Shown one piece after another: positions 6,217 to 64,000 of a stretch of 64,000 nucleotides of DNA (within the stretch, counting starts at the first letter, position 1; each line of letters opens with the position of its first letter). The stretch lies in NCBI GenBank assembly GCA_036343395.1, contig JAZASH010000002.1, forward strand, positions 12,425 through 76,424. The letters run 5' to 3'. The notes beneath the pieces were generated by a model. The model saw only the letters and a list, made by a program, of their open reading frames with translations, ran no database searches and was not told the origin of the DNA. Source of the stretch: Eubacterium sp. (lineage in GTDB: Bacteria > Bacillota > Clostridia > Lachnospirales > Lachnospiraceae). The position numbers and the translations under genes were made by a program.

Positions 6217-6245
6217 TCTTTCCAAGCATAAGATGTTCCGTACGG

Positions 6246-6280
6246 GAGACCACCTCTTCGGAGGTGGTCTTCTTTTTTTT
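6246..6280 (+). terminator. Intrinsic terminator after flagellin 1
   Basis: GAGACCACCTC-TTCG-GAGGTGGTCTTC followed by a T run. Confidence 0.9.
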
Positions 6281-6399
6281 GTTATTATTACTATTATGTA
6301 ATGATAATAGTAATGCGTAGTTTCGTGCCGGCCGGCTGCTGGAAATAAACGATTTTTCGGTGTGCCTCGCCGGGTTTGATTTTTTTTTATTTTAGGGGT

Positions 6400-6425
6400 T
6401 AAGTATTTGAAAAGTGCTCCGATAT
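6400..6425 (+). promoter_or_regulatory. sigma28 promoter of flagellin 2
   Basis: (GGGGT)TAAG-15 nt-CCGATAT. Confidence 0.8.
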
Positions 6426-6541
6426 ATATGGTGTAAGGAGCAAGGGAATGCTTCTAATACCGGTAAGAAAGTTAGATAACAATCAAATAAACCAATTCCA
6501 CTCACAAGGATAGTGAGAGAAAGAAAAGAGAGGTAATCATT

Positions 6542-10099: not shown

Positions 10100-10131
10100 C
10101 GACATATGTTTACCAATAGAAATGGAGATTT

Positions 10132-11232: not shown

Positions 11233-11242
11233 AGGAATGTGT

Positions 11243-12118: not shown

Positions 12119-12128
12119 GAGAAACAAT

Positions 12129-14381: not shown

Positions 14382-14392
14382 GGAGATTCGAG

Positions 14393-17413: not shown

Positions 17414-17422
17414 GGAGGGGAT

Positions 17423-18613: not shown

Positions 18614-18631
18614 CAGTATGAGGAAGAACAA

Positions 18632-40848: not shown

Positions 40849-42693
40849 ATGGATATAGAAGAAAAGATTGAAAATGTCACAAATAAAGTGTATGAAGTTC
40901 TCGGTATTGATAATAAGCGGAAAAGGGTCTTTTCTGTCATTGGTGATATTGTACATTCTGTTTGCGCTAAGTATAGTAAAATTGGTATCTTTGGTACCGG
41001 TGAACACACTCGTGAACTGTTTCAAAGGTTTCAAGTTGAAAATGTAATTCTTTTTATTGATAAAAACCCCGATATTGAGTCGTGCTTTGAAATGCCTGTT
41101 GTAAGGCCGAATGATAATCTGGTTTTTGGATTAGAATGTATAATAATTTCAAGCTATATGTATCGAAAGGAAATGGTGTTCGCGCTTGTTTCCCAGGGGT
41201 ATAAAGGATATATTCTTGACATTTACGATGAGGCCGAAAGAAGAGGTGTGTTTCTGGATCGCGTTTTTTATCAAACCCCATTTCCTGGCTTTAGCGAGAT
41301 ATTCTTGGCTCTAAATGGTTTGCAGTTTGCGGAAAGCATTGAACGAAAAAGCGAACTAATGGGAACAGCCATAGTATCTTTTCTGGAAGTCAGAGACTTT
41401 CAGAGTGCAATAAAGTATATGGAATTGTACGTTGAGAACGAATACGACAATTATGTTTCATTAAAAGGTATATGCGATTCGTTCAAAAAGGTTTTGAGTG
41501 ATATCAAGAAAAGGATCCAGAATAGGAAGAAGAAAGATATCATTATCCATTGGATAGATGGCCTTGGGAATGATACGGAAGCGATGCCCTTTTTGCAAGA
41601 CGAAATCGCCTCTGGGATTATGTTTAATAATGCTTTTACTGTTGTTCCGTGGACTTCATCCGTGATCGAGAATCTTTGCTTTGGAGAATTAAACATTGAA
41701 GGGAAACTGTTCGATAAAGATTTGCCTTTTTCAAATAGTCCACTAATTAAAGAGGCTGAAGCAAATGGATATCGTTTTGTATATGCTGGGGCGCCGGATC
41801 GTGCCCTAAGATTCTTTGGAGACAACAGTGTCTACAGTATGAAAAGGTTTCAGACTAGAGTTTACTCATTACCGTCTACGATAATAAGGTGGGAGGCGAT
41901 AAAGGCCCTGTATGAGGCTGACACTCCCTTGGTGTTACTTATCCATTCACTTTATGAGACGCATGAATTTGTTTCCCCCTATGGTTGTTTGTCTTTACTC
42001 TATGATACAAACGATTGCTGTGCCCGCGGAATAGTTGATGTCAATTCGTTGGATGACGAGAGACACAAGGCAAATAATTATGCAGATAAGCAAATGAAGT
42101 GGTTTTCAGATTTTCTTTCAGAAGACAGCATACGAATATATTTTAGTGATCATGGCCCGATTTACGGGTGGCAGTATCCTTTCGAAGATGTGCGTTCCAG
42201 AGTGTTTTTATGCATAAACAGTACGGATATCAATTCGATGGTATATGATGGTTTGTTTTCTCTTGTGAACTTTCGGGATGTATTAAAGCACATATATAGT
42301 TGTGATTATAACTTTGACGATGTAGTGTCAGACTATATTCGCCTTCAGGGATATGATATGTATTCAAAAGAAAACGTGATCGCGATGTTGGAGGGGTGTT
42401 ATGCAAATGCGGATATTTCAATAATGCAATACCGTGGAATTCGTTCGTGTGAGGATAAGTATGTTCGATATATTGATGGCAGGGAGTTTTATTTCAGGTT
42501 TCCGGATGAGAAAACCAACCTGATTAATGATAAGAAATACCGGAATAGAATTTCCTTGCTTCGTGATTTGAACGGTACAAATTATATTGACGTTTTCAAG
42601 TATGACAAGTTTATCGCGACGGTTTTGCTGTATCAGAAGTTGAAATTAAATATCGAGTTTGATGAAGATGGTGAACATGTATTCTTCGAATGA
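40849..42693 (+). CDS. Alkaline-phosphatase/sulfatase-fold protein A
   Basis: IIHWIDGLG...NAFTVVPWTSS...HSLYETHEF...YFSDHG. Confidence 0.65.
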   Translation: MDIEEKIENVTNKVYEVLGIDNKRKRVFSVIGDIVHSVCAKYSKIGIFGTGEHTRELFQRFQVENVILFIDKNPDIESCFEMPVVRPNDNLVFGLECIIISSYMYRKEMVFALVSQGYKGYILDIYDEAERRGVFLDRVFYQTPFPGFSEIFLALNGLQFAESIERKSELMGTAIVSFLEVRDFQSAIKYMELYVENEYDNYVSLKGICDSFKKVLSDIKKRIQNRKKKDIIIHWIDGLGNDTEAMPFLQDEIASGIMFNNAFTVVPWTSSVIENLCFGELNIEGKLFDKDLPFSNSPLIKEAEANGYRFVYAGAPDRALRFFGDNSVYSMKRFQTRVYSLPSTIIRWEAIKALYEADTPLVLLIHSLYETHEFVSPYGCLSLLYDTNDCCARGIVDVNSLDDERHKANNYADKQMKWFSDFLSEDSIRIYFSDHGPIYGWQYPFEDVRSRVFLCINSTDINSMVYDGLFSLVNFRDVLKHIYSCDYNFDDVVSDYIRLQGYDMYSKENVIAMLEGCYANADISIMQYRGIRSCEDKYVRYIDGREFYFRFPDEKTNLINDKKYRNRISLLRDLNGTNYIDVFKYDKFIATVLLYQKLKLNIEFDEDGEHVFFE

Positions 42694-42739
42694 ACGCAAT
42701 ATGGATGCAGGTTATAGTTGTACAAAAAAAGGAGGAAAG

Positions 42740-43249
42740 ATGATTCTTTGGTTAATTGGAATATCCGGTGCTGGAAAAACCACTTTGGGAAGAAAACTGG
42801 AAAAACACTTCAATGATATTGGAAAGAAGTGCTATCTTCTTGACGGGGACGAAGTTCGTGACCTTTTTGATCGTGATTTGGGGTATACAGATACGGATCG
42901 GGAGGCGAATATAAAGCGTATAATCTTAGGGGCTTATTTGCTTGACAGGAACGATATTGTTGGGATAATCTGTAATATTGCTCCGATTGAGAGACTACGA
43001 CAGCTTGCTCGTAAGAAGATTACTGGATATAACGAGATCTATTTGAGAAAAGACATTCAAGTGAGTATTAAAAATGATGTGAAGAATGTTTACAGGGACA
43101 ATATGGGTAAGACACAGATTGTCGGATTGGATACATCTTTTGATGAGCCGCAGTCACCGGATTTAGTTATTGATGTAGATGAGGAATCTGAAGAGGAGAG
43201 TTATAATCGTATTCTTGACTATATTCATAAGAAGTATGGGGAGGATTGA
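42740..43249 (+). CDS. cysC: Adenylyl-sulfate kinase
   Basis: WLIGISGAGKTT...LLDGDEVR...FDEPQSPDL; adjacent to sat. Confidence 0.82.
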   Translation: MILWLIGISGAGKTTLGRKLEKHFNDIGKKCYLLDGDEVRDLFDRDLGYTDTDREANIKRIILGAYLLDRNDIVGIICNIAPIERLRQLARKKITGYNEIYLRKDIQVSIKNDVKNVYRDNMGKTQIVGLDTSFDEPQSPDLVIDVDEESEEESYNRILDYIHKKYGED

Positions 43250-43253
43250 TCAG

Positions 43254-44315
43254 ATGAGGTACAGCGTAACGATAGATCAGGAAACACTTCAGGACGTGAT
43301 CAATATAGAAACAGGTCTTTTGTATCCTCTTGATGGATTTATGGGGAAAGATGATTTTGAGTCTGTTGTTTCTGATTGTATATTGTCAGATGGGAAGGTC
43401 TTTACTATTCCCGTCACGTTGGATGTGCCGAAAGAAATCTATGATTCTGTCAAGACAGGAGATACAGTTGATCTGTTATTTTGGGAGGATATTGTTGCAA
43501 GTATAGTAGTAGATTCTTGGTTTGAAATGACAGATCAAGCGTTGAAAATGGTTTTCAAGACCCTTGATTTGGCGCATCCAGGCGTGAAGAAAGAAAAGGA
43601 AAGAAGTCCTTATCGAATAGGTGGCAAGACCGAACTTATAAAAAAAGAGCTTTTGGAAGATGCTCTTAAGCCGGAAGACACAAGAAAAGTATTTGCAAAT
43701 AATGGTTGGAGAACGGTTGTTGGATTTCAAACCAGAAATCCCATACATAAGGCGCACGAGCATATTCAACGTCTTGGGCTAGATGTATGTGATGGACTTT
43801 TTATAAATCCGATAACCGGTTGGAAAAAGAAGGGTGATTTTTCGGAGGAGGCTGTTATAGCTGCCTATGAGACTATGATATCTGAGTTTTATCCGAAAAA
43901 TCGGGTGTATTTGGCAGGTCTTCGTACACAGATGCGATATGCAGGACCTAGGGAGGCTGTCTTTCATGCTATTATTCGACGGAATCTTGGTTGTACGCAC
44001 TTTATTATTGGACGGGATCATGCTGGAGTTGGTGGGTATTATGGAGCATATGATGCTCATGCACTTGCGAGAGAACTATCAGAAAAGTATGATCTTGGAA
44101 TAGAACTTCTATTGACTAGAGAACCTTATTATTGTAAGAAATGTAAACAAGTTGTAACGGATCATACCTGCTCTCACTATAATACTCACAGAGTTGAGAT
44201 AAGCGGAACAATTATTCGCGGATATATAAGTGATGGTCATATTCCGGATGAACTTATGCTGCGCAAGGAGATTTTTGATGCGATTTGCTCCTGTAAATCG
44301 ATTTTTGTTGAGTGA
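43254..44315 (+). CDS. sat: Sulfate adenylyltransferase
   Basis: PLDGFM...FQTRNPIHKAHE...MRYAGPREA...GCTHFIIGRDHAGVG. Confidence 0.95.
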   Translation: MRYSVTIDQETLQDVINIETGLLYPLDGFMGKDDFESVVSDCILSDGKVFTIPVTLDVPKEIYDSVKTGDTVDLLFWEDIVASIVVDSWFEMTDQALKMVFKTLDLAHPGVKKEKERSPYRIGGKTELIKKELLEDALKPEDTRKVFANNGWRTVVGFQTRNPIHKAHEHIQRLGLDVCDGLFINPITGWKKKGDFSEEAVIAAYETMISEFYPKNRVYLAGLRTQMRYAGPREAVFHAIIRRNLGCTHFIIGRDHAGVGGYYGAYDAHALARELSEKYDLGIELLLTREPYYCKKCKQVVTDHTCSHYNTHRVEISGTIIRGYISDGHIPDELMLRKEIFDAICSCKSIFVE

Positions 44316-51615: not shown

Positions 51616-51663
51616 TTGACAGCCTAGGTGATTTATGCGATAATGGGAGCCAGAGATGGCTCC
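51616..51663 (+). promoter_or_regulatory. sigmaA promoter plus inverted repeat for the SDR...pepM operon
   Basis: TTGACA-17-GATAAT (TG extended), immediately followed by GGAGCCA-GAGA-TGGCTCC. Confidence 0.65.
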
Positions 51664-51730: not shown

Positions 51731-52474
51731 ATGCCAATGCATGGGAAAACTGTTATCATTACGGGCTGTAACAGGGGGATCGGAAAGGCGATTTTGGAAG
51801 GGATGGCTAGGAGAGGAACGGACATCATCGCGATCATCAGGGATAAAAAGCCGGATTTTGAACAATTTAGTGAAGAAATGGCACGTGAATGCGATGTTAG
51901 TATTCGTATGGTATATGCGGATTTTTCGGATGAAGAGGCTGTCAAGGCGGCTGCAAAGCAGATTATTCAGATGAAATGCCCGATTGACGCGATTGTCCAT
52001 AATACTGCTGTGGCGAATGAGTCGAGATCCTATATGATGACCGGCGTTGATGAGATGAAGCGTGTTTTCCAGATCAATTTTTTCTCACCGATTCTGTTGA
52101 CACAGCTACTGGGGCGCCAGATGATCAGGGCAAAGAAAGGGAGTATCGTTTTTATTGCGTCTGCCGCGATTTATGACGCGTGGGGAAATCTGGAGTATAC
52201 CGCCAGTAAGGCGGCAGTGGCGGGAGCCGTGAAGAGGCTTGCCAGAGAGATGGGGGCTTACGGTGTAAGGGTTAATGCTGTTGCACCCACGCTGACCGAG
52301 ACGGAGATGGCGGAGAAGATGAGCAAGGAGGATCAGGATGTGATCCTTTCGAGAAATATCATGCATCGGATGGGAAAGCCGGAGGAGATAGCAGATGCCG
52401 TTGCCTATCTGACGTCGGATGAGTCTGGGTTTATAACCGGACAGATTCTCCGTGTAGACGGTGGCTTGTTGTAA
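51731..52474 (+). CDS. SDR oxidoreductase
   Basis: TGCNRGIG; YTASK; VNAVAPTLTET; LRVDGG. Confidence 0.9.
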   Translation: MPMHGKTVIITGCNRGIGKAILEGMARRGTDIIAIIRDKKPDFEQFSEEMARECDVSIRMVYADFSDEEAVKAAAKQIIQMKCPIDAIVHNTAVANESRSYMMTGVDEMKRVFQINFFSPILLTQLLGRQMIRAKKGSIVFIASAAIYDAWGNLEYTASKAAVAGAVKRLAREMGAYGVRVNAVAPTLTETEMAEKMSKEDQDVILSRNIMHRMGKPEEIADAVAYLTSDESGFITGQILRVDGGLL

Positions 52475-52487
52475 TCGGAGGGAACAG

Positions 52488-54278
52488 ATGATTCGAGTTG
52501 TTGATTATATCGTGAAGCGCCTGAAAGAGCAGGGAATAGATCATGTTTTTTTTGTTCCCGGCGTGGGATGTATGTATCTGACGGATGCGTTGGCAAAGGA
52601 TAAGGAGATTACGGCCGTGTCGGTGCATCACGAACAGGCGGCTGCAATGGCTGCACTGGCCTATGCACAACAGAAAGAGGGACTGGGTGCGTGTTTTCTG
52701 ACAACGGGGTGTGGCGGGACAAATGCTATTACCGGTGTCCTCCATGCGTGGCAGGATGGAATCCCGTGTATCATCATATCCGGTCAGGTCAAACAGGAAG
52801 ATAGTATCGATGGCTGCGGTGCGGATGTGAGACAGGTGGGAAGACAGGAGGCGGATGTCTACCCCATGATAAAGGGAATTACTAAGTACGCGTCTGTCGT
52901 ACGTAATGCTTCGCAGATTGGTGCGGAGATGGATAAGGCGATTTATCATTCTGTCAACGGGAGACAGGGACCGTCCTGGCTCATTCTGCCGTTGGATGTG
53001 CAGGCGGGGATGGTAGATGAGGATTCACTGGATTCGTGGAGGCCGGAAACGAAACCGGAAGATACGGTAGATAGAGATGCGGAGGAGATCAGTGAATGGA
53101 TCCGGAGCGTCTCGAGACCTCTTCTTCTGGTTGGAAGCGGGATCCGGGCGGCCGGAGCTGTGGGAATACTGCAGTCGTTCCTGGACAAGACAGGAATGCC
53201 GGTCGTGTGTGCGAGAACGGGAGTCGATCTGATCGATGGTGACAGAGCCTATGCGATAGGGGTGACCGGGACATTGGGGGTCAACAGGGCTGCGAACTTT
53301 GCCGTGGCTAACTGTGATCTGCTTTTGGTCGTAGGCCACAGGATGAGCCGTGATACGGTTGGTGATGCAAATAAATATGCAAGAGAAGCCAGAATATGTA
53401 TGATCGATATTGACCCGGAGGAGATGAATAAAAACACCATACGTGTCGATAAAAAGATATGTGCGGATGCCGGTTCATTTTTGCATAAACTGTCGGAAAG
53501 AGTGTCTTCCGATGATATCGACAAAAACTGGAAAGATAAGTGTATGCATTGGAAATGTGTTTTTCCCAAAAAAGATGCTTTGTGTGTATCGGAGGAGAAA
53601 AGTGTACCGGATCTGTATACGTTTTTGGATGCACTATCAAAGGTGATGCCGGAGAAAACGACGTTGCTCAGTGATGCCGGCTCCGTATGGCAACTGGTGC
53701 CATCCGTGGTCGGATATGATGGCATGACACAGCGTAGTATTCATGCTTATGCGCAGGGAGAAATGGGGTTTTCGATACCCGGTGGTATAGGGGCTGCCTA
53801 TGCGAATCCGGATGGAGTCACGGTGGCCATCACCGGTGATGGCTCTGCCATGATGAATATCCAGGAACTGGCTACCATCCATCACAGAAGTATACCGGTC
53901 AAGATCATCGTAATCAATAATAAAGGTTATGCCACGATCAAGACCACACAGAAGGATGCCTTTCGAAGGACCATTGGAACCGGGTTGGAGGATGGACTGG
54001 GGATGCCGGAGTACAGTTGTCTGGCGGAAGCATTCGGAATCTGTTACATGAGTATCGATACTACCGATCATCTGGAAGAGAGTATTCGTGAGGTGTTGGA
54101 TACGGAAGGGCCGGTGTTGTGTGAGGTGTTCTGTGAAGACAGGACGCGGACTCTCATGACTTCCTTTGCCATGACAAAGGAAAGACGGATGGTGATGAGG
54201 CCAATCGAGGATTTGTCACCGTTTCTTGACAGAGAGTTGTTCCTGAGCGAAATGATAATAGACCCAATCGATCAATGA
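52488..54278 (+). CDS. ThDP-dependent acetolactate-synthase-like enzyme
   Basis: HHEQAAAMAA...TTGCGGTNA...GDGSAMMNIQEL...NN ThDP motif; no small subunit nearby. Confidence 0.85.
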   Translation: MIRVVDYIVKRLKEQGIDHVFFVPGVGCMYLTDALAKDKEITAVSVHHEQAAAMAALAYAQQKEGLGACFLTTGCGGTNAITGVLHAWQDGIPCIIISGQVKQEDSIDGCGADVRQVGRQEADVYPMIKGITKYASVVRNASQIGAEMDKAIYHSVNGRQGPSWLILPLDVQAGMVDEDSLDSWRPETKPEDTVDRDAEEISEWIRSVSRPLLLVGSGIRAAGAVGILQSFLDKTGMPVVCARTGVDLIDGDRAYAIGVTGTLGVNRAANFAVANCDLLLVVGHRMSRDTVGDANKYAREARICMIDIDPEEMNKNTIRVDKKICADAGSFLHKLSERVSSDDIDKNWKDKCMHWKCVFPKKDALCVSEEKSVPDLYTFLDALSKVMPEKTTLLSDAGSVWQLVPSVVGYDGMTQRSIHAYAQGEMGFSIPGGIGAAYANPDGVTVAITGDGSAMMNIQELATIHHRSIPVKIIVINNKGYATIKTTQKDAFRRTIGTGLEDGLGMPEYSCLAEAFGICYMSIDTTDHLEESIREVLDTEGPVLCEVFCEDRTRTLMTSFAMTKERRMVMRPIEDLSPFLDRELFLSEMIIDPIDQ

Positions 54279-54291
54279 GGAGGGATTGTTC

Positions 54292-54531
54292 ATGACTAAT
54301 CTTGAGAAATATGATGCGGCGTTCCGGCAGGCGTTGGCACTTGATGATGAATATGATGTCACAGGTCTACGATACCAGGCGATTCCGTCGTGGGATTCCG
54401 TGGGACATATGGGATTGGTTGCCTGCCTGGAGGACAGCTTTGGATTCGTGTTTGATGTCGATGATATGATAGACTTGGACTCTTATGAGAAGGGGATTGA
54501 GCTACTGAAAAAATACGACATTGAGATTTGA
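54292..54531 (+). CDS. Acyl carrier protein 3
   Basis: WDSVGHMGLV motif; similar to ACP 2. Confidence 0.88.
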   Translation: MTNLEKYDAAFRQALALDDEYDVTGLRYQAIPSWDSVGHMGLVACLEDSFGFVFDVDDMIDLDSYEKGIELLKKYDIEI

Positions 54532-54550
54532 TATCGGCAGGGAGGCATAG

Positions 54551-55153
54551 ATGACGGACTATGAATATGTCACGATCTCTCCACCTGACAGAGATCAAGG
54601 AAGAAGACTGAGTTATGACGGTTTTTCTCTCCTGGACCGTGTTGTCGATGTTGAGGTAAAGAGTACCCAGGTTCAGGGATTGAATCGGTATCGGTTTACC
54701 ATTTCAAAGGAGTCGGTGTCAGAAAAAAAGGAAGAGATGCTCGCCATTTGTTCCGAGGCGTATGTCAATGATTACAGGTTCTATGTTTCAGGCGAAAGAT
54801 CGGATCCAGATGCAGTGGCTCGAATGAGGGATTTGATCGGTCAGTTAGAGCATCCGGGAACGATCCTTTTGTGGGTGGAATATCGCGAAAACGGAATAGG
54901 GTTTCTGGCGCTGACATCGGAGGAGGATGCAATGCGAATCACATTGGCAGCAGTCCTTCCGAAATATCAGGGAAGCGGAGTGGCTCTTGAGTTGTATACG
55001 AAAGGGATACTGGTAGCCGCTGAGGCTGGGATGAACCGGGTTATCGGTCGGATATCCACGACAAACACCGCAGTGATGAATCTGTATTCGCATCTGGGGG
55101 CCAAGTTTACTTCTCCGATGGATGTCTACGTCAGGAAACAGGAAGGAAAGTGA
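54551..55153 (+). CDS. GNAT family acyltransferase
   Basis: ITLAAVLPKYQGSGVA...ISTTNTAVMNLYSHLG. Confidence 0.8.
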   Translation: MTDYEYVTISPPDRDQGRRLSYDGFSLLDRVVDVEVKSTQVQGLNRYRFTISKESVSEKKEEMLAICSEAYVNDYRFYVSGERSDPDAVARMRDLIGQLEHPGTILLWVEYRENGIGFLALTSEEDAMRITLAAVLPKYQGSGVALELYTKGILVAAEAGMNRVIGRISTTNTAVMNLYSHLGAKFTSPMDVYVRKQEGK

Positions 55154-55159
55154 AAGAAA

Positions 55160-56236
55160 ATGAAGCTGGATGACTGGTTTGAACTGGATCCGTATGGGCT
55201 GGAACAGGGAGAAAAGGGAGTAAAGACTGCGGATTATATGAGGGAGTTGTGCCGCTATCACTATGAAGCCTGTCCGGAGTATAAAGCAATTCTGGACACA
55301 CTGGGTGTAGATATAGAGGAAATCGATTCACCGGAAATGGTTCCCTATGTACCGGTTCGATTATTTAAAAACCATTATCTGCACAGTGTGCCCGAGGAGG
55401 AGATCACCCGTGTGATGACATCGTCGGGGACGACCGGACAACAGGTTTCACGTATAGCTTTGAGCGCGGACAATGCCAAGGCGCAGCAGAAGGCGCTGTC
55501 CAGGATCGTGGCTTCCTATGTTGGGGAAAACCGGTTGCCACTCATGATTCTTGATTCTAAGAGAGCCATCAAGGATCGCAAGATGTTTTCGGCAAGGGGG
55601 GCGGGAATCCTCGGCTTTTCCATATTTGGTAAGGATACTACATATGCGCTTGATGAGGATATGAAGCCGGATTTGGGAGTAATCGAGGAGTTTCTGAAAA
55701 AGCACGGTGATGAGCCAATCCTTTTATTCGGGTATACCTATATGATCTGGAAGGAGTTTTATCTCAACCTGAAGGAAGCGGGACAAAAAGTCGACTTTGG
55801 GAAAGGATCAAGACTATTTCATGTAGGCGGATGGAAAAAACTACAGGATCTGGCCGTGGATAAGGATGAATATGCAGGCAGTCTCAGGGAACAGTGTGGG
55901 ATTGAGTTTGTTCATAACTATTATGGAATGGCGGAACAGCTGGGGTCTATTTTTGTTGAATGTGAAGAGGGACATCTGCACACCAGTATCTATTCTGATG
56001 TGATCATCCGGGATTCGGAGGATTTTTCTGAGGTATCGGACGGAGAGGCTGGATTGATGGAGGTGATGTCTGTATTGCCGACATCCTATCCGGGGCATGC
56101 TATCCTGACCGAGGATAAGGGAAGAATCCTGGGAGTTGACGACTGTCCCTGTGGAAGGAAAGGGAAATACTTTGAGATATTGGGCAGGATCGCACGAGCA
56201 GAGGTGAGAGGCTGCAGCGATACTTATCAAGGATGA
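55160..56236 (+). CDS. Acyl-protein synthetase (LuxE family)
   Basis: TSSGTTG...HVGGWKK...YYGMAEQ...YPGHAILTEDKG...GRIARAEVRGCS. Confidence 0.88.
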   Translation: MKLDDWFELDPYGLEQGEKGVKTADYMRELCRYHYEACPEYKAILDTLGVDIEEIDSPEMVPYVPVRLFKNHYLHSVPEEEITRVMTSSGTTGQQVSRIALSADNAKAQQKALSRIVASYVGENRLPLMILDSKRAIKDRKMFSARGAGILGFSIFGKDTTYALDEDMKPDLGVIEEFLKKHGDEPILLFGYTYMIWKEFYLNLKEAGQKVDFGKGSRLFHVGGWKKLQDLAVDKDEYAGSLREQCGIEFVHNYYGMAEQLGSIFVECEEGHLHTSIYSDVIIRDSEDFSEVSDGEAGLMEVMSVLPTSYPGHAILTEDKGRILGVDDCPCGRKGKYFEILGRIARAEVRGCSDTYQG

Positions 56237-56255
56237 TTGTCAAGGAGGAGCACGT

Positions 56256-57434
56256 ATGGATATATTGGCCGGTGTTAAGCCGGAGGAGATTGTTGTAAAA
56301 CCGTTAAGACCGTATTGCGATATAGTTTGTGATTTTTTTAATGATTGGAGCCGGTTGATGAGATCTCATCCTGAGGGAAGACGCCTTGGTGATGTGGTTT
56401 CTTTTGCTTTTTTTTGCCGAAAAGGAAATCTAGAGCGTTTGAGGGAAGAGGCGCATATTGAGGACTTGCGGATGGGACGAGGGTTGTGCTTCCATATCGC
56501 ACCGTCCAATATTCCGGTTAATTTTGCGTTTAGTTATGCATTTGGTCTCCTTGCGGGGAATGCCAATATCGTCAGAGTTTCGAGCAAGGCTTTTTCTCAG
56601 GTGGATATCATATGTGATACTTTAAATAAGTTGTTTGAGGATGATAGGTATGAGGCGATTCGCCGTATGACATCCATCGTGAGATATGACCACGATTCGG
56701 AAATTACGGACAGGCTTTCCGGTATGTGTGACATACGATTGATATGGGGAGGTGACGAGACGATAGCTGCTATACGAAGGTCTATTCTCAAACCGGGAAG
56801 CACTGAGATCACCTTTGCGGATAGGTATTCGATTGCGGTTATCGATGGGAAAACGGTTCGTAGTGCATCGGAGGAGGAACTGGAGAAGTTGGCCGGTGAG
56901 TTCTACAACGATACATATATGATGGATCAAAATGCTTGTTCATCACCTCAGATGATATACTGGATCGGAGCGGAGAAGGCGGACAAAGACAGGTTCTGGG
57001 ATGCAGTTAGTCAAACCATAGAGGGGTATGATGTAAGTGAGTTCATTGCCAGTGAGAAATATACTATGCTTTGTGATGATGCGATCGTTCAGCAGGGAGT
57101 GGGAAGACTGAAAAAGTATCAAAACAAACTGTATGTTGTTGATATTCCTGCGAATGCTGACGTGGATATGCTGGATGGTTGTCACGGGAAATACGGCCTT
57201 TTTTGCGAACAGGAGATCGATGGTATTTTGGAAATACTGGATTCAATCGACCGCAAGGTTCAGACCTGCACTTACTATGGAGTGGATGCAAGGGGGCTTG
57301 CCGAGCAGGTTTTGGACCAGGGTGTGACGGGGATCGATCGAATCGTGCCAATAGGGAAAGCGTTGGATATTGGAGTGTACTGGGATGGATATGATCTGGT
57401 CAGACAGATGAGTCGGAGGATAGAGGTAGTATGA
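56256..57434 (+). CDS. Acyl-CoA reductase (LuxC family)
   Basis: HIAPSNIPVNFAFS...GLLAGNANIVRVSS...DQNACSSP...GIDRIVPIG. Confidence 0.88.
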   Translation: MDILAGVKPEEIVVKPLRPYCDIVCDFFNDWSRLMRSHPEGRRLGDVVSFAFFCRKGNLERLREEAHIEDLRMGRGLCFHIAPSNIPVNFAFSYAFGLLAGNANIVRVSSKAFSQVDIICDTLNKLFEDDRYEAIRRMTSIVRYDHDSEITDRLSGMCDIRLIWGGDETIAAIRRSILKPGSTEITFADRYSIAVIDGKTVRSASEEELEKLAGEFYNDTYMMDQNACSSPQMIYWIGAEKADKDRFWDAVSQTIEGYDVSEFIASEKYTMLCDDAIVQQGVGRLKKYQNKLYVVDIPANADVDMLDGCHGKYGLFCEQEIDGILEILDSIDRKVQTCTYYGVDARGLAEQVLDQGVTGIDRIVPIGKALDIGVYWDGYDLVRQMSRRIEVV

Positions 57435-58198
57435 ATAGCATTAAAAGGCAATTATTGGATTCTCTGAGAAAACTGGAAGAGTATCATGGCGTGGAGGCAA
57501 TAAAGGCAGAGTTTGAGGCGGAGGGTTCTCGACTCGACGAGCTTATCATGTTGAACGAGGTTGTTTTTCGGGCGGATATGGAGCTGATTATCAAAATCGG
57601 CGGATGTGAGGCTGTGAGAGATTTGGACCAGTGCAAGCTGCTCGGGGCATCAGGGGTGATGGTACCGATGATCGAGACGCCATTTGCCATGGAAAAGTTT
57701 ATCGGTGCGTATCACAAGGTGTACGGGGAGGAGACTTCGGCTGAAAGGATTATCAATGCGGAGACGATTACCTGCCTGGAAAACTATGATGAGATACTTA
57801 GCCGGGGGAAGGGATTCCTTACCGGTGCTACCGTGGGACGGAGTGATCTGTCTGCGTCTATGGGGATAGATAAATCGGATATCGAAAGCGATGCGGTTTT
57901 TGATGCCACGATGGAGTTTGTCAAGAAATCAAGGAATGCGGGTTTAGTTACGAATTTCGGCGGTGGAATCGGAGTAGAATCGATTCCGTTTATCATAAGG
58001 ATGAGTCCATTTATCGACCGTTTTGAAACCAGAAAGGTTGTGATCCGATCCAGCGAAGATTCGGATTGGTTGAAGAAAACGATACAGGAGGCGTTGCGAT
58101 TTGAATTGCTGTACCTTGAATACAAAGCCAGCTATTATGATGCAATGTCGAAGGAGGATTCAAAGAGAATGAAACGGTTGAAAGGGCAGCTTAACTAA
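57431..58198 (+). CDS. HpcH/HpaI aldolase/citrate lyase family protein
   Basis: KAEFEAEG...KIGGCEA...VPMIET...INAET...GRSDLSASMG. Confidence 0.75.
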   Translation: MNSIKRQLLDSLRKLEEYHGVEAIKAEFEAEGSRLDELIMLNEVVFRADMELIIKIGGCEAVRDLDQCKLLGASGVMVPMIETPFAMEKFIGAYHKVYGEETSAERIINAETITCLENYDEILSRGKGFLTGATVGRSDLSASMGIDKSDIESDAVFDATMEFVKKSRNAGLVTNFGGGIGVESIPFIIRMSPFIDRFETRKVVIRSSEDSDWLKKTIQEALRFELLYLEYKASYYDAMSKEDSKRMKRLKGQLN

Positions 58199-58254
58199 CG
58201 CGGATGGCTATTGGAAAAGATGCAAAAACTCTTGCAGAAATGAGGACAGTATAG

Positions 58255-59550
58255 ATGAAGACAATTTATACCTGCTTTTGTACAGATATTATCCATGAGG
58301 GACATATGAACATCCTTCGTGAGGCGGCAAAGTATGGTCGTGTTGTGGTTGGTGTACTTTCGTCGTCTCAGATGATGCTCTATAACCGTTTCCCGACGAA
58401 GACAACTGTGGAGAGGGTTGAGATGATCCGCGCGATTGATCTAGTGGCTGAGGTGATTGTTCAGAAGACGATCATGTATGATGATGTGATCGGTGAACTG
58501 CATCCGGACTACGTGATCCATGGTGATAACTGGAATGGAGAGTGGATGGAGAGGATTCGTCAGAATATCGTCTCGCTACTTGAACCATATGGTGGAAAAC
58601 TTATTGAGGTTTCTTTTACCAGAAGCCCTGAGATTACACGTATCGATCGGTTGATGGAGCAGAAACTGGCTATGCCGGAGTTTCGTAGACATCGTTTGCG
58701 CCGCGTGATGGAGTTGACACCGATCGTAAAGACGATTGAGGTACATTCGGGATTGACCGGGTTGATCGCGGAGCACACGCAGGTGGTTGATGAGAAATCG
58801 ATCGCTCAGTATGATGCAATGTGGATTTCATCGCTCTGTGACTCGACGGCAAAGGGAAAACCGGATATCGAACTGGTTGATATGACGTCGCGTTTTCATA
58901 CCATTGATGAGGTAATGGAGGTTACGACGAAGCCAATCATTTTTGACGGTGATACCGGTGGTTTGACAGAGCACTTTGTCTATACAGTGAGGACGTTGGA
59001 GCGGATGGGAGTTTCGGCGGTGATTATTGAGGATAAGATTGGGTTGAAGAAGAATAGTCTCTACGGAACAGAAGCGGGGCAGACTCAGGCGTCGGTTGAA
59101 GAGTTCTGTGAGAAACTTCGCGCCGGGAAGAATGCACAACTGTCGGATGACTTTATGATCATCGCTCGCGTGGAGTCTCTGATCTTGGAACGGGGGATGG
59201 CGGATGCGCTTTCTCGTGCTTTTGCATATCGAGATGCTGGTGCGGACGGTATCATGATACACAGCCGTCAGAAGTCGCCGGATGAGATATTGGAGTTTTG
59301 CGATAAGTTTAGAGAGTTCGATAAGGATACACCGTTGGTTGTTGTTCCGTCGTCGTATAATACCGTTACGGAGGACGAGTTGGCAGTTCATGGGGTGAAT
59401 ATCGTGATTTACGCAAATCAGCTTCTTCGTGCAGCGTTCCCGGCGATGAAGAAGGTGGCGCAGAGTATCCTCAAGTATCATAGAGGGGCAGAAGCGGATG
59501 AGGATCTGATGCCCATTGATGAGATCTTGGGATTGATTGAGCAGTTGTGA
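58255..59550 (+). CDS. pepM: Cytidylyltransferase-phosphoenolpyruvate phosphomutase fusion (AepX type)
   Basis: N-terminal DIIHEGH; PepM motifs W.SSL.DS..KGKPD, DGDTGG, EDKIGLKKNSL, ARVESLI, YANQLLRA. Confidence 0.93.
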   Translation: MKTIYTCFCTDIIHEGHMNILREAAKYGRVVVGVLSSSQMMLYNRFPTKTTVERVEMIRAIDLVAEVIVQKTIMYDDVIGELHPDYVIHGDNWNGEWMERIRQNIVSLLEPYGGKLIEVSFTRSPEITRIDRLMEQKLAMPEFRRHRLRRVMELTPIVKTIEVHSGLTGLIAEHTQVVDEKSIAQYDAMWISSLCDSTAKGKPDIELVDMTSRFHTIDEVMEVTTKPIIFDGDTGGLTEHFVYTVRTLERMGVSAVIIEDKIGLKKNSLYGTEAGQTQASVEEFCEKLRAGKNAQLSDDFMIIARVESLILERGMADALSRAFAYRDAGADGIMIHSRQKSPDEILEFCDKFREFDKDTPLVVVPSSYNTVTEDELAVHGVNIVIYANQLLRAAFPAMKKVAQSILKYHRGAEADEDLMPIDEILGLIEQL

Positions 59551-59565
59551 TGGAGAGATGGGAGG

Positions 59566-60306
59566 TCAAATCACAGTTAGGGCCTGTAGTTCTTCCGGGG
59601 TGTCGACTTCATAGAGGTCGTCATTGCCTACGGGGAAGATGGTTAGGTTCAGTTTGTCGAGGTTTTGATTTACGACATCATCCCAGAAGAGGTTCTCGGT
59701 TCCTGGGGTATTATATGATTCTATGATAGCATCGGCTAATACGGTGCTATCGTTTTTATTGAAGTAGGAGAGGCCGACCATCATGTGGGTGTCCATGCCG
59801 GATTTGCCAACGCGGGTGATGCGGCCGGTTTTGTCCGTGTCAAAGCACCAGTCGTCGGTGGGACCGGCGTGATACTTGGCAAAGTAGCCGGAGATGCGAT
59901 CACGCTTGGTTGTCACATGAGCAGAGTGGTCGTCCTCCGCATGCTTAGCGGTAGCATATGATAGGATGTTTTGCTTCTTGATGTAAAGGTCTGCTTCGCA
60001 TATGAAACAATCCTCACCTCGGAGCGTGTCTACAGCGACGTAGAGGGAGGAGAGATTGTTTTTTGTCTCGTATTCTGGGTTGTGGACAAGATGGACCTCT
60101 TGGTGTTTTTCTGTGAGTGTGGCGAATTGGTCTGCTTTGTACCCTGTCACGATGTAGATGTCTGTGACGCCGTAGTTTTCGAGAGCGGATATGACGGTCT
60201 CGATGAGCATCGTGTCGCCGACTTTAAGAAGGGGCTTTGCTGTGGTTTCTGTGAGTGGGCGCATGCGCATGCCCATGCCGGCAGCGAGCAGGATTCCGAT
60301 AGCCAT
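59566..60306 (-). CDS. LicC/PntC-like nucleotidyltransferase (candidate CMP-phosphonate synthase)
   Basis: ILLAAGMGMRMRPLT...PKPLL-like KPLLKV...NNLSSL...FWDDVV...EVDTPEEL; co-transcribed with the AEP transaminase. Confidence 0.8.
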   Translation of the reverse strand: MAIGILLAAGMGMRMRPLTETTAKPLLKVGDTMLIETVISALENYGVTDIYIVTGYKADQFATLTEKHQEVHLVHNPEYETKNNLSSLYVAVDTLRGEDCFICEADLYIKKQNILSYATAKHAEDDHSAHVTTKRDRISGYFAKYHAGPTDDWCFDTDKTGRITRVGKSGMDTHMMVGLSYFNKNDSTVLADAIIESYNTPGTENLFWDDVVNQNLDKLNLTIFPVGNDDLYEVDTPEELQALTVI

Positions 60307-60307
60307 A

Positions 60308-61459
60308 TTATTCCTCCGTATACTTTGCGGGTATCTGAACCCTGTTTTCTTTTAGCGCAGCTTCGAACACTTCCCAGAAGTTTTCTATATCGGGGGCGTC
60401 TATCGCTCCAAGGGCGCAAAGGCGGAATGAGCCAGTGTTTTCCAGCTTTCCCGGATAGATGGTGAAGCCGCGTTCGTAGCAGTAGTCGTGTACTTTGTCA
60501 AAATCCCAATTCGGATCGTCGGGATAGCGAATCGCCGAGACGAGTCCGGACTGGTTCTTTCTGTCGAGCAGTTCTCTGAATCCAAGTCGATCGACGCCGG
60601 CGCGGATGGCGTTGATGATGCGCTGGTGACGCGACCATTTTTCTGACTCCCCTTCGGCGAAGTATTCGTCGAGAGCCTGGCGTGCGGCGTAGATGGTCTG
60701 CACCGGTGGTGTGAAGTGCATCTGGCCGGTTTTCTCGAAAAACTCGTACTGCAGATAGAGGTTGCAGTAGTAGGAGCGAGTCGGGTTTTGCTTCGACTTC
60801 TCGATGAGGTCGGTGCGACCGATGATGTAGGACAGACCGGTCATGCCCTGGATGCCTTTTTGCGCAGATGCCATGCAGAAGTCGATGTTGTCTTTTTCGA
60901 TATCTATGGGGATCATCGCGTAGGATGATGTAGTGTCGGTGATGAAAACTGCGTCGTGTTCGTGCGCAATGCGGCCGATCTCTCGGATTGGATTGAGGAG
61001 ACCGGAGCCGGTCTCGTGGTGTGTGGCGTAGACAACAGCGATGTCGTTTTTCTTAGTAAGAATGTGCTCGAGCTCGGCGAGATTCGGGGGCTTGTAAAGG
61101 GACTGCACCCAATCGACGTATGGGATATGGTAGGCGTCCAAGATTTCGCAGGCGCGCTCGGAGTAGGCGCCGTTGTGGATGACAAGGGCGCGGGGCGTGC
61201 CGTCGGGTGAGTCCGGTACCAGGGAGTTTAGCACGATGTCCATGCAGATGGTGCCGGAGCCGCAGAATGGGACAGCGGTGTAGGTTTCCGGGTCGCCGTG
61301 GACGATCTTGACGAGATCGTCGCGGATATTTTTCATAAGGAAAGCGAACTCCTCCTCGCGTGGACAGATGTCGGGGACGATCTGAGCGGCTTTTACCGTA
61401 TCGGTCGTCGTGGACGGGCCCGGGTTTAGAAGGATGTTGCGTTTGATCGGTGTGGTCAT
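60308..61459 (-). CDS. phnW: 2-aminoethylphosphonate aminotransferase
   Basis: ILLNPGPSTT...DICPRE...GSGT...HHETGSGLLNP...DTTSSY...SAQKGIQG...HFTPP; GAGGTG RBS before ATG 61459. Confidence 0.9.
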   Translation of the reverse strand: MTTPIKRNILLNPGPSTTTDTVKAAQIVPDICPREEEFAFLMKNIRDDLVKIVHGDPETYTAVPFCGSGTICMDIVLNSLVPDSPDGTPRALVIHNGAYSERACEILDAYHIPYVDWVQSLYKPPNLAELEHILTKKNDIAVVYATHHETGSGLLNPIREIGRIAHEHDAVFITDTTSSYAMIPIDIEKDNIDFCMASAQKGIQGMTGLSYIIGRTDLIEKSKQNPTRSYYCNLYLQYEFFEKTGQMHFTPPVQTIYAARQALDEYFAEGESEKWSRHQRIINAIRAGVDRLGFRELLDRKNQSGLVSAIRYPDDPNWDFDKVHDYCYERGFTIYPGKLENTGSFRLCALGAIDAPDIENFWEVFEAALKENRVQIPAKYTEE

Positions 61460-61496: not shown

Positions 61497-61525
61497 ATAA
61501 TATAACCATTGTTTGGTGTTGTCAA
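61497..61525 (-). promoter_or_regulatory. sigmaA promoter of the phnW/aepZ-nucleotidyltransferase unit
   Basis: Minus strand TTGACA-17 nt-TATTAT. Confidence 0.7.
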
Positions 61526-61592: not shown

Positions 61593-62888
61593 TCATATAA
61601 ACATTGCCATATAAAGTGGAAGAGTATCCACGGTATCGTTAGAGGATAGATTCTTAGATGAGAGCTTGATACCATGTTTTACTCCATGATTCTGTATGAT
61701 GCTTGTCATAGATTTTGATGTGTTCTTTTCTGAAGATTTTACTTCTACAGCGGTTAATTGTTTGTTGTAGCGGATGATAAAATCCATTTCCAGTTTGGAA
61801 TCTTTTTCGTAGTAGTAGAGCTTTTTCTCTGATTTGGTGAAGATGTCGGCAACGATGTTTTCGTAGATGGCGCCCTTGTAGATGCCAAGGTTTCCGTCGA
61901 GGATATCCTCGACAGAACCTTCTTCGAGCATGGCTGTTAAAAGCCCGGTGTCTCGCATATATACCTTGAAACAATCGCTTTTTGCATTTCCTTCCAGAGG
62001 TAATTCGAGATTTGCCAGATTGTAGCAAAAGGATATGATTCCGGCATCAGCAAGCCACTCCAAGCTACCTCCGAATTTTCTGTAAGTGCCTTTTGCCTCG
62101 ATCAGGCTGTATCGGAACTTTTTATAGTCTTTAGCTAGATGCTTTGGGATAGACAGAAAGCAAGCACGCGCCTTGGTTTTTTCTGCGCCGGTGGCGTATT
62201 TTGCGATGTCATCGAGGTAGTCTGAAAGTATTTCGTTTTGAATGCGAAAAACCTTGGAAAAGTCGTTATGATCGACAAAGTCTTGCACAACATAAGGCAT
62301 GCCGCCGATTACGATGTATTTACGGAAGAGTTTCATATACTCTTCATGCATCGAGTCGGGAAGTGGCTCCCTGTTTTCGTAGTGTTCGCGAAGTGTTTGG
62401 ATGTTTTCTTCCGTGATTCCGCATGCCCATAGGAATTCTTCAAAGTCAAGTGAGTGCATATCAATGTAGTCCACATATCCTACCGGATAAGAGGGCATGC
62501 TTTTGTGGTGGATTCCAAGCATGGATCCGGAAGCGATCACGTCATATCGGTCATCCATGGAAAAAAACTTGAGGGCGGCCCTAGCTTCCGGGCATTCTTG
62601 AATCTCGTCCAGGAAGATGAGGGTCTCATGTGGGACTAATTCGACATCCCTTACGCGGAATGATATTTGCATCAGGATATCGTCGACACTGAGGGATTCT
62701 TTGAAGATTTCCTTGTAGGTAGGTTTTTCCACGAAGTTGATAGTGATATGGTGTTTGTAGTTTTCGCGGGCAAACTTCTCTATGACGTAGGTTTTGCCTA
62801 CCTGTCTGGCACCACGGATCATGAGTGAACGGGTGGTGCGATCATCTTTCCATTTTATGAGTTTTTCTTCGACTTTTCTCGTGAGCAT
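61593..62888 (-). CDS. AAA+ ATPase with DUF4143-type C-terminus
   Basis: GARQVGKT Walker A; FLDEIQ Walker B; IASGS; GGMP; YMRDTGLL; AVEVKS. Confidence 0.88.
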   Translation of the reverse strand: MLTRKVEEKLIKWKDDRTTRSLMIRGARQVGKTYVIEKFARENYKHHITINFVEKPTYKEIFKESLSVDDILMQISFRVRDVELVPHETLIFLDEIQECPEARAALKFFSMDDRYDVIASGSMLGIHHKSMPSYPVGYVDYIDMHSLDFEEFLWACGITEENIQTLREHYENREPLPDSMHEEYMKLFRKYIVIGGMPYVVQDFVDHNDFSKVFRIQNEILSDYLDDIAKYATGAEKTKARACFLSIPKHLAKDYKKFRYSLIEAKGTYRKFGGSLEWLADAGIISFCYNLANLELPLEGNAKSDCFKVYMRDTGLLTAMLEEGSVEDILDGNLGIYKGAIYENIVADIFTKSEKKLYYYEKDSKLEMDFIIRYNKQLTAVEVKSSEKNTSKSMTSIIQNHGVKHGIKLSSKNLSSNDTVDTLPLYMAMFI

Positions 62889-62940: not shown

Positions 62941-63037
62941 TGAAAATGCAGATTTACCCCACGACTTTTGGTGTGAAAATGCAGATTTACCCCAAGACTT
63001 TTGACATGAAAATGCAGATTTTCCCCACGAGATTGTG
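62941..63037. repeat. 33-bp tandem repeat array, 3 copies
   Basis: TGAAAATGCAGATTTACCCCACGACTTTTG(N3) units starting at 62941, 62974 and 63007. Confidence 0.92.
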
Positions 63038-63165
63038 TTTTTGACAAAAAATATTGTCAAGTATACTCGACGAAAAATCAGTTTTTAAATAGATCCCTAA
63101 AAACCCTATACAGATTCGGAGTGGAACTCCGAAAAAAACTAGAACAATAAAGGCGAGTTGGTCGG

Positions 63166-63217
63166 ATGTATATACATATTGACAATGATATCCAGATAGT
63201 ATATACTTGTATATACA
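63166..63217 (+). promoter_or_regulatory. sigmaA promoter overlapped by three GTATATAC palindromes
   Basis: TTGACA(63179)-17-TATACT(63202); palindromes at 63166-63177, 63198-63207 and 63208-63217. Confidence 0.75.
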
Positions 63218-63277
63218 TAATGCAAGTATATCGCGGGGAGTTTTTATGTGATTTTTCAGAAAGTGAGGGTGAAATAT

Positions 63278-63790
63278 ATGAAAACACAGTTGAGAACCTG
63301 GGGGAACAGCAGGGCGGTGAGGCTTCCGGCCAAGGCGATACAGATGTCGGGTTTGAGTGAGGAAGATGAGCTTGACGTAATGGTTGAGGATGGGGAGATC
63401 ATCCTGTCGAAGAACGGAGATAGAGGGGAGGAGTCTTTAAAAAGGGCTTTGTTATATAGAGATGGACTTTGCGGTCTGTCGGATATTATCGTTGCTTCCG
63501 ATGTTCGGAAAGAGGCAGAGGAAGTCTGTGAGGAGATCGGGTTATCGTTGCAGGTGGCAATCGGAGTGTTCTTGCAGAAGGTCAGAAGAGAGAAAAGAAT
63601 TCCGTTTGAGCTGACTGCGGGAGATGAGATCAGGGGGAGGTATGCCTCTGGGGAGAAGGTCGATTGCAGTTCGCTGTATCCGAAGGAGTCTTTTGAGTTT
63701 TTCGGATCGGGGAGTGAGTTGGGGTTTGATGTGGAGCCGGAGGATCCTGTGGAGGATATTCATGCGATAAAGAGGGAGACCGTGGGATGA
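63278..63790 (+). CDS. AbrB/MazE plus RelB/DinJ double-antitoxin-domain protein
   Basis: TWGNSRAVRLPAKAI...EDGEIILSK (MazE-like), then RKEAEEVCEEIGLSLQVAIGVFLQKVRREKRIPFEL (RelB/DinJ-like). Confidence 0.75.
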   Translation: MKTQLRTWGNSRAVRLPAKAIQMSGLSEEDELDVMVEDGEIILSKNGDRGEESLKRALLYRDGLCGLSDIIVASDVRKEAEEVCEEIGLSLQVAIGVFLQKVRREKRIPFELTAGDEIRGRYASGEKVDCSSLYPKESFEFFGSGSELGFDVEPEDPVEDIHAIKRETVG

Positions 63791-63832
63791 GATATTATTT
63801 GGACACAAATATAATCATATATCGAAAATCGG

Positions 63833-63896
63833 CCAAAATGCAGATTTACCCCACGACTTTTGATATGAAAATGCAGATTTACCCCACGAGATTGTG
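63833..63896. repeat. 33-bp tandem repeat array, 2 copies (same unit as 62941-63037)
   Basis: AAAATGCAGATTTACCCCACGAC/G units at about 63833 and 63866. Confidence 0.92.
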
Positions 63897-63902
63897 ATTT
63901 TT

Positions 63903-63957
63903 TTGACTTTTTGTCGGTTTTGTGAGATAATAGGAGCCAGAGATGGTTCCTTTTTTT
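63903..63957 (+). promoter_or_regulatory. sigmaA promoter plus GGAGCCA-N4-TGGTTCC inverted repeat (for a gene beyond the window)
   Basis: TTGACT-17-GATAAT (TG extended), then AGGAGCCA-GAGA-TGGTTCCT and a T run; near copy of 51616-51663. Confidence 0.6.
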
Positions 63958-64000
63958 GACGTGAAAGAGCGTATAGGAGATTGCGTCTTTAACCTAAACG

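Follow-up and report, generated by a model that had tools for sequence, protein, structure and literature searches.

We analysed a 64,000-nucleotide stretch of DNA (referred to as the window) from a Eubacterium sp. of the Lachnospiraceae (assembly GCA_036343395.1, contig JAZASH010000002.1, positions 12,425 to 76,424), which begins with flagellar genes and carries near its other end a gene for a phosphoenolpyruvate (PEP) mutase, PepM, together with further genes of phosphonate synthesis. In our reading the locus probably encodes the complete canonical route to cytidine monophosphate-activated 2-aminoethylphosphonate (CMP-AEP) in a rearranged form, and we infer that LicD-family transferases would pass the phosphonate on to the O-glycan of flagellin. 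The PepM domain would turn PEP into phosphonopyruvate, from which a canonical thiamine diphosphate (ThDP)-dependent phosphonopyruvate decarboxylase (Ppd) would make phosphonoacetaldehyde, thereby pulling an unfavourable equilibrium forward; the transaminase AepZ would convert phosphonoacetaldehyde to 2-aminoethylphosphonate (AEP), the LicC-like nucleotidyltransferase PntC would convert AEP to CMP-AEP, and at least one LicD-family transferase would move the AEP group from CMP-AEP to the flagellin O-glycan. The four genes would derive by rearrangement from a compact operon of co-directional genes that is widespread among anaerobes of gut and rumen, and aepZ and ppd would each have gained a promoter of its own. 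The elements of the phosphonate segment are given below in window positions, which equal positions in our locus L007 plus 51575; the window ends at C2:76424.

58255-59550, + strand: fusion of a cytidylyltransferase-like domain with a PEP mutase (pepM), 431 aa (TIGR02320, PF01467).
59566-60306, - strand: LicC-like nucleotidyltransferase, PntC by context (PF00483 and PF12804).
60308-61459 (open reading frame to 61525), - strand: 2-aminoethylphosphonate aminotransferase (PhnW/AepZ), 383 aa from the ATG (TIGR03301).
61497-61525 (L007 9950-9922), - strand: near-consensus promoter of aepZ-pntC, TTGACA-17-TATTAT, 11 of 12 matches.
64013-65311 in window-equivalent numbering (L007:12438-13736), outside the window, + strand: canonical ppd open reading frame (TIGR03297).
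65045-65157 in window-equivalent numbering (L007:13470-13582): 33-nt tandem repeat within the coding sequence of ppd.
Beyond the window, 3' of ppd: genes for a FliB-like protein, an AMP-dependent ligase and a Fic-domain protein.

A preliminary description of this DNA, drawn from the window, had reported a phosphonate pathway lacking a canonical decarboxylase. No ppd indeed lies within the 64000 bases, but the pathway does not lack one: when the whole genome was searched with the TIGR03297 profile (cut-off 312.5 bits), a single match above the cut-off was obtained at C2:76470-77720, in a reading frame that starts 13 nt after the last window base, on the same contig and + strand as pepM and 4.46 kb downstream of the pepM stop codon. 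Since ppd begins just past the window end, its apparent absence is a window-edge artefact, and of the suggestion that a distant ppd might supply the step, the location elsewhere held and the distance did not, the gene being adjacent at 4.5 kb. Ppd reaches 440.4 bits on TIGR03297, consists of TPP_enzyme_N and TPP_enzyme_C only, with no central domain (Pfam), contains the ThDP-binding GDG...NN motif (IDGDGAALMHMG...VINNGAHE) and retains all 132 of the 132 invariant columns of a 31-sequence alignment with Ppds from related pepM loci. With 432 aa it is the longest of 70 relatives (the others measure 372-405 aa) because it carries two lineage-specific insertions, namely a 10-aa Gly/Ala-rich segment and a segment of approximately 50 aa composed of GSEVARMRSVD-like units, which arises from 3.4 copies of the 33-nt tandem repeat and was found in no relative. 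An AlphaFold2 model (mean predicted local distance difference test score, pLDDT, 76) shows a confident core, with both insertions, its sole disordered parts, placed as low-confidence loops between regular secondary-structure elements. The FliB-like gene 3' of ppd matches the flagellin lysine N-methylase model NF038110 with 107.9 bits (cut-off 85), over its N-terminal 165 residues only.

The remaining enzymes of the route lie within the window, and family scans confirmed the identities and coordinates that the preliminary description had given to the PepM fusion, the nucleotidyltransferase, the AEP transaminase and the ThDP enzyme discussed further below; the convergent halves it had noticed, with the stop codons of pepM and pntC 15 nt apart, and the separate promoter of aepZ (TTGACA-17-TATTAT) stood as well. 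[quoted passage not shown] In the fusion, a cytidylyltransferase-like domain with an HxGH motif occupies approximately residues 1-135 and the PEP mutase approximately residues 145-431; the mutase part matches the PEP mutase structures 5UNC and 1M1B, and the fused N-terminal domain the cytidylyltransferase domain of Fom1 (5X3D, E 1.3e-23). Fusions of this kind, of PF01467 with Ppm, account for 23.6% of Ppm proteins, and some known clusters hold a separate nucleotidyltransferase besides the fused one (PMC6697681). AepZ reaches 437.5 bits on TIGR03301 (cut-off 360.8), and its length of 383 aa is also that of the gene call in a separate Logan assembly. Every testable defining feature of PepM, Ppd and AepZ was thus found.

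For the nucleotidyltransferase the best match in the Protein Data Bank is Streptococcus pneumoniae LicC (1JYK), with a full-length alignment (E 9.6e-25), and Treponema denticola PntC (Tde-PntC, 6PD1) is matched over the N-terminal half only (E 1.5e-8). The marks of PntC specificity are a kinetic preference for AEP over phosphocholine that arises from a smaller head-group pocket, with Glu at Tde-PntC positions 104 and 196. Glu104 of the Eubacterium enzyme corresponds to Glu104 of Tde-PntC, whereas LicC has Asp105; Asp209 aligns with LicC Asp192 and Tde-PntC Glu196. The AEP-specific PntC of Atopobium rimae is likewise nearer to LicC (Rice et al. 2019, PMC6697681). We assigned the enzyme as a putative PntC, an AEP cytidylyltransferase, from its gene context: orthologues of 43-50% identity are found within the pepM-aepZ-pntC-ppd operons of relatives.

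While ppd was taken to be missing, the preliminary description had proposed that the step might be supplied by a neighbouring acetolactate synthase (ALS)-like ThDP enzyme acting as a non-canonical Ppd, or replaced by another sink for phosphonopyruvate such as an aldolase or a short-chain dehydrogenase/reductase (SDR). These enzymes belong to an acyl module with the following parts:

51731-58198, + strand: acyl module, upstream of pepM and co-transcribed with it.
51731-52474, + strand: SDR.
52461/52488-54278, + strand: three-domain ALS-like ThDP enzyme, including TPP_enzyme_M.
Between the ThDP gene and the aldolase gene, + strand: reading frame resembling an acyl carrier protein (ACP; no Pfam or NCBIfam match), GNAT, LuxE-like and LuxC-like genes.
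57431-58198, + strand: HpcH-like aldolase.

The presence of the ThDP enzyme, the SDR and the aldolase in one operon with pepM speaks for the view that Ppd is lacking and that one of the three drives PepM, and yet we regard this as extremely improbable, given the canonical ppd 4.5 kb downstream. On TIGR03297 the ALS-like enzyme obtains 31.9 bits (C2:66160-66576) against the cut-off of 312.5, it has the central TPP_enzyme_M domain that Ppd is without, and its best models are acetolactate synthases, all of them below their own cut-offs. Its family comprises thousands of members at 43-47% identity; in three of three sampled contexts (L188, L189, L190) the homologues adjoin ACP, AMP-ligase, LuxE-like, LuxC-like and SDR genes and sit among sugar genes of the NeuB/DegT type, and pepM was not found within 9 kb of any of these modules. 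Conversely, in the 80 loci with the closest PepM fusions a ThDP homologue occurs once, at 35% identity, and genes for HpcH-like, LuxE, LuxC, GNAT and SDR proteins occur beside none of the 80. The ALS-like enzyme was therefore rejected as a non-canonical decarboxylase on the grounds of the ppd found, the poor score on the Ppd model and the pepM-free modules, and the HpcH-like aldolase and the SDR as phosphonopyruvate sinks on the grounds of their absence beside pepM in the related loci. Judged by gene content, the acyl module is separate from the phosphonate pathway.

How the two came to share an operon may be read from the order of genes in L188, namely ThDP, LuxE, LuxC, AMP-ligase and a gene of the MBL fold (minus strand); in the Eubacterium locus the orthologous AMP-ligase (64% identity) and MBL-fold genes come after ppd and the FliB-like gene. 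Because these two genes are displaced past ppd in comparison with L188, the simplest reading would be an insertion of the phosphonate segment, which extends from pepM to the FliB-like gene, into the acyl module. The AMP-ligase gene itself (L007:15090-16703), usually found next to LuxE/LuxC as it is in L188-L190, is displaced 8.5 kb downstream.

The phosphonate module, as far as comparison of genomes allows us to judge, is horizontally mobile, because its hosts are widely spread and pepM is patchy in its own genus. The PepM fusions nearest to that of the window, at 65-72% identity, were found in metagenome-assembled genomes (MAGs) and isolates of rumen and gut, with Lachnospiraceae, Ruminococcus, other Clostridia, Treponema, Selenomonadales and Methanobrevibacter bins as hosts, and within the genus pepM was found in 7 of 24 other genomes, at 68% identity or less. 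Within 5.5 kb of pepM, Ppd is encoded in 69, AepZ in 59 and PntC in 55 of the 80 loci, nearly all co-directional. In the two Lachnospiraceae loci with the most similar PepM, AepZ and PntC (L012, L015) the order is pepM-aepZ-pntC-ppd, which a single in-place inversion of aepZ-pntC turns into the order of the window. It thus appears that aepZ-pntC was inverted in place and that a cassette of ATPase and antitoxin-like genes was inserted before ppd. Four loci binned as Methanobrevibacter (L008, L011, L013, L018) encode cytidylyltransferase-PepM fusions of 69-71% identity, three of them with a Ppd gene nearby; either these bins reflect transfer of the module between bacteria and archaea, or they are mis-binned. 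In two genomes of the same genus (L099 in G008, L100 in G019) pepM is faced by a convergent long LicD gene and is divergent from aepZ. Because this is another layout that is not co-directional, rearrangement of phosphonate genes seems common in the genus.

The rearranged segment falls into three transcription units, and the promoters and inserted genes that accompany them, apart from the aepZ-pntC promoter given above, are these:

51616-51663, + strand: promoter TTGACA-17-GATAAT with the palindrome GGGAGCCAGAGATGGCTCC, heading the SDR-to-pepM operon.
61593-62888, - strand: AAA_14/DUF4143 ATPase gene between aepZ and ppd (Pfam), absent from the compact operons of relatives.
63248-63790, with flanks 62943-63900, + strand: AbrB/MazE and RelB-like small gene or genes, likewise absent from the relatives.
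63903-64000, + strand: promoter of ppd, TTGACT-17-GATAAT (TG upstream), directly followed by the palindrome AGGAGCCAGAGATGGTTCCT, a T-run and a leader.

The genome contains two exact copies of a 25-nt element comprising promoter and palindrome, GATAATRGGAGCCAGAGATGGYTCC, one in front of the SDR-to-pepM operon and one in front of ppd, and even with up to three mismatches allowed the element was found in only those two places of the 2.48-Mb assembly. Since the element is common to these two units alone, it argues that ppd and pepM would be co-regulated despite their separation. The antitoxin-like cassette is flanked by 33-nt tandem repeats with the consensus AAAATGCAGATTTACCCCACGACTTTTGRYRTG, three copies at 62943-63041 and two at 63835-63900, each set being followed by GAGATTGTG and a -35 box; no further occurrence of this repeat was found in the genome. 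These repeats could be iteron-like sites of a regulator or the scar of the cassette insertion. Misassembly was considered as the source of the convergent layout and ruled out by the same order in another assembly: pepM, pntC, aepZ, ATPase, antitoxin-like gene and ppd follow each other, and the Ppd insertion is present, on a 70.7-kb contig of the separate Logan assembly of run SRR13433999, which, as the run may be the MAG's own sample, represents a second assembler and not a second sample.

It might be argued that such a module is decaying, its genes having been uncoupled by the inversion, the cassette and the repeat insertion in Ppd, so that little or no AEP would be made. The splitting of the operon into three transcription units, the 15 nt between the convergent genes and the unusual length of Ppd, the longest of its 70 relatives through its two insertions, would agree with this. 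Against it stand four intact reading frames scoring above curated cut-offs, a Ppd that has kept every invariant residue and bears its insertions in predicted loops, and a near-consensus promoter at each displaced unit; decay of the module is for us quite improbable.

The proposed destination of CMP-AEP is suggested by the position of the module. According to the list of open reading frames and family scans, the window is one long flagellar locus with nearly all genes on the + strand:

Opening the window, 5' of the flagellins: FlgL-like, FliW, FliD and FlgN genes.
5404-7357, + strand: two short flagellin genes, 270 and 271 aa, with Flagellin_N and Flagellin_C domains.
7478-21013, + strand: five genes for LicD-family phosphotransferases of 873, 293, 750, 1020 and 793 aa (PF04991).
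Interleaved in the LicD array (7478-21013), + strand: GT2-TPR and GT1-like glycosyltransferase genes.
27529: Maf-like MptE gene.
49840: CMP-sugar synthetase gene.
50559: NeuB gene.

The Flagellin_N, Flagellin_C and PF04991 matches show that the flagellin and LicD context described earlier is real. After the LicD array come approximately 35 kb of genes for sugar and acyl biosynthesis; among them are Maf-like, NeuC/NeuB-type and CMP-sugar synthetase genes, genes for KAS III and ACP, a split transketolase and genes of sulfate activation. The glycan genes, among them Maf-type and nonulosonic-acid genes, are contiguous with the flagellins, as defines a flagellin glycosylation island, and the flagellar gene order is that of sister species. 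On sequence grounds, then, the phosphonate segment is located at the far end of a flagellin glycosylation island of roughly 60 kb.

Related arrangements recur elsewhere. Locus L083, from an uncultured Eubacterium MAG, opens inside a flagellin gene, of which the final 44 codons are present; uninterrupted and on one strand there follow three long LicD genes, then aepZ, pntC and ppd, and lastly a cytidylyltransferase-pepM fusion, and the LicD proteins share 31-34% identity with those of the window across their entire length. A scan of metagenomes with an alignment of the long LicD proteins, and then tblastn, revealed 10 loci in which a related LicD array has flagellin directly upstream of it, and in L109, L118 and L126, three of the 10, the order is FliW-FliD-flagellin-LicD; full-length relatives of the LicD array are encoded directly 3' of flagellin in L083, L191, L192, L109 and L117-L122. 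PepM and Ppd genes lie beside LicD genes in L110, L147, L177 and L182, and in L147, where the LicD genes number three, flagellin and a TagF-like gene are present as well. The layout of flagellin, GT2-TPR and long LicD is shared by two sister species, whose FliD is 70-73% identical; in the same genus a long LicD gene abuts pepM (L099, L100), and in the same order a LicD gene lies beside pepM (L103). In an isolate, Roseburia sp. 1XD42-69 (L025), pepM-ppd is located in the vicinity of NeuB. There is a chemical precedent in Clostridioides difficile, which has no pepM: on the N-acetylglucosamine (GlcNAc) of its type A flagellin glycan, 2-AEP was detected by mass spectrometry (PMC8861647). The LicD-family proteins of the array are candidates for acceptor-side transferases using CMP-AEP, and attachment of AEP to flagellin is what the synteny suggests. 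The earlier proposal that CMP-phosphonate feeds the LicD array and yields a phosphonate-modified flagellin thus agrees in its chemistry with the genes and has synteny in its favour (L083, L147, L099/L100, L103, L110, L182); the flagellin product itself we infer.

Several observations weigh against our interpretation. The gene pepM lies approximately 37 kb from the nearest LicD gene and approximately 51 kb from the flagellins, with many pathways between, so that the acceptor could be another glycan, and flagellin was found within 10 kb in none of the other 79 closest pepM loci. PntC is nearer to the phosphocholine enzyme LicC than to Tde-PntC and keeps an Asp at the position of LicC D192, so that its specificity for AEP is judged from gene context. 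Between the convergent genes pepM and pntC there is no space for a terminator, and expression might suffer; the repeat-encoded insertion of approximately 50 aa in Ppd is unusual; and because no convincing inverted repeats were found at its breakpoints, the inversion is deduced from gene order alone.

The first of these points feed the view that the AEP pathway is complete, and that AEP goes onto another surface polymer (a wall teichoic-acid-like polymer, a capsule or an S-layer glycan), the module having merely come to lie in the island's mobile distal end. Besides the 37-51 kb between the module and the LicD and flagellin genes and the 79 of 80 related pepM operons without flagellin within 10 kb, mobile-type flanks (the DUF4143 ATPase, the antitoxin-like gene and Fic) are in line with it, as are the many related operons in non-flagellated hosts, for example Ruminococcus and Methanobrevibacter, and the proposal by Rice et al. 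2019 (PMC6697681) that the targets are usually cell-wall glycans. What speaks against it is that a three-way link between flagellin, long LicD and AEP genes recurs (L083, L147), that LicD and pepM are adjacent in genomes of the same genus, that a FliB-like gene is co-transcribed with ppd, and that ppd has its promoter element in common with an operon of the island. We consider another surface polymer an unlikely destination, and retain the flagellin O-glycan as the probable one.

Some features of the island may extend this picture. Genes for APS kinase and ATP sulfurylase lie at 42659-44315, within the island, between two unassigned proteins of approximately 600 aa; the pair hints at a sulfated or other activated-anion decoration besides AEP. 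No Pfam match was obtained for the C-terminal domain of the long LicD proteins, even at E 0.5, and in a BLASTP comparison this domain shared 33% identity (E 2e-23) with the N-terminal region of the TagF-like (PF04464) protein encoded at L147:12942-14189. The long LicD proteins may be two-headed phosphotransferases. Finally, a protein of approximately 600 aa in which a nucleotidyltransferase is fused to a class I/II aminotransferase is encoded next to flagellin in L147 (2608-4416) and in the related sugar island of L188 (17501-19315); it resembles the PntC-AEPT fusion Tde1415 in domain order and differs from it in the class of the aminotransferase.

The logic of phosphonyl tailoring by Ppm, Ppd, AEP transaminase (AEPT) and PntC is known (PMC6697681; PMC8942020). 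In the literature searched no paper ties pepM clusters to flagellin loci; flagella are not mentioned in Rice et al. (no occurrence of 'flagell') or in the inventory of Li and Horsman. The Pnt clusters of A. rimae, Olsenella uli and T. denticola (PMC6697681) likewise contain Ppm, Ppd, an AEP transaminase and a LicC-like PntC, can combine a Ppm-fused nucleotidyltransferase with a separate PntC, have LicD-like genes nearby and are predicted to supply CMP-AEP for surface decoration; unlike them, the Eubacterium locus is divided by inversion and insertion into three transcription units and is part of a flagellin island with long LicD genes right after the flagellins. With C. difficile 630 (Claushuis et al. 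2022, PMC8861647) the organism has in common a short flagellin of clostridial type; the type A O-glycan of that strain bears phospho-linked substituents, with AEP chemically shown on GlcNAc, and its genome is without pepM, whereas the biosynthetic genes are present in the Eubacterium locus. Fom1 of the fosfomycin pathway of Streptomyces wedmorensis has the same cytidylyltransferase-PepM architecture and cytidylylates hydroxyethylphosphonate on the way to an antibiotic; here an AEP transaminase and PntC are found instead, and no iron-dependent alcohol dehydrogenase (Fe-ADH) or Fom3-type gene turned up in the family scans of the cluster. The LicC/LicD phosphocholine pathway of S. pneumoniae is similar in its LicC-like cytidylyltransferase and in its LicD phosphotransferases, which use a head group activated by cytidine di- or monophosphate. 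Unlike in that pathway, relatives encode the cytidylyltransferase in one operon with AEP synthesis, a flagellin glycan and not teichoic acid would be the likely acceptor, and no choline kinase or choline transporter was seen within the window.

The pathway, then, is a known one, and its flagellin-locus context is new to the literature searched and recurrent in gut and rumen Firmicutes. As the notion of a PepM pathway without a decarboxylase proved untrue, no new phosphonate chemistry is to be expected here; what remains useful is the physical link of a standard CMP-AEP module with LicD genes next to flagellin, in this organism as well as in several gut and rumen genomes that are unrelated. AEP on a flagellin glycan has been detected in one study only, in an organism without pepM (PMC8861647), and the loci described here name candidate genes (pepM, pntC and the long LicD) for flagellar phosphonylation. 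That gut and rumen bacteria of the Lachnospiraceae type possess a dedicated system for flagellin phosphonylation, built from long LicD proteins and an attached pepM-ppd-aepZ-pntC module, has in our view an even chance of being correct. If AEP is indeed transferred in this way, the flagellin O-glycan would carry a C-P-bonded, phosphatase-resistant zwitterionic group, a genetic basis would be supplied for AEP-bearing flagellin glycans like that of C. difficile, and flagella would be a source of AEP in the gut, which raises the question of how phosphonylation would affect motility, immune recognition and the attachment of phages.

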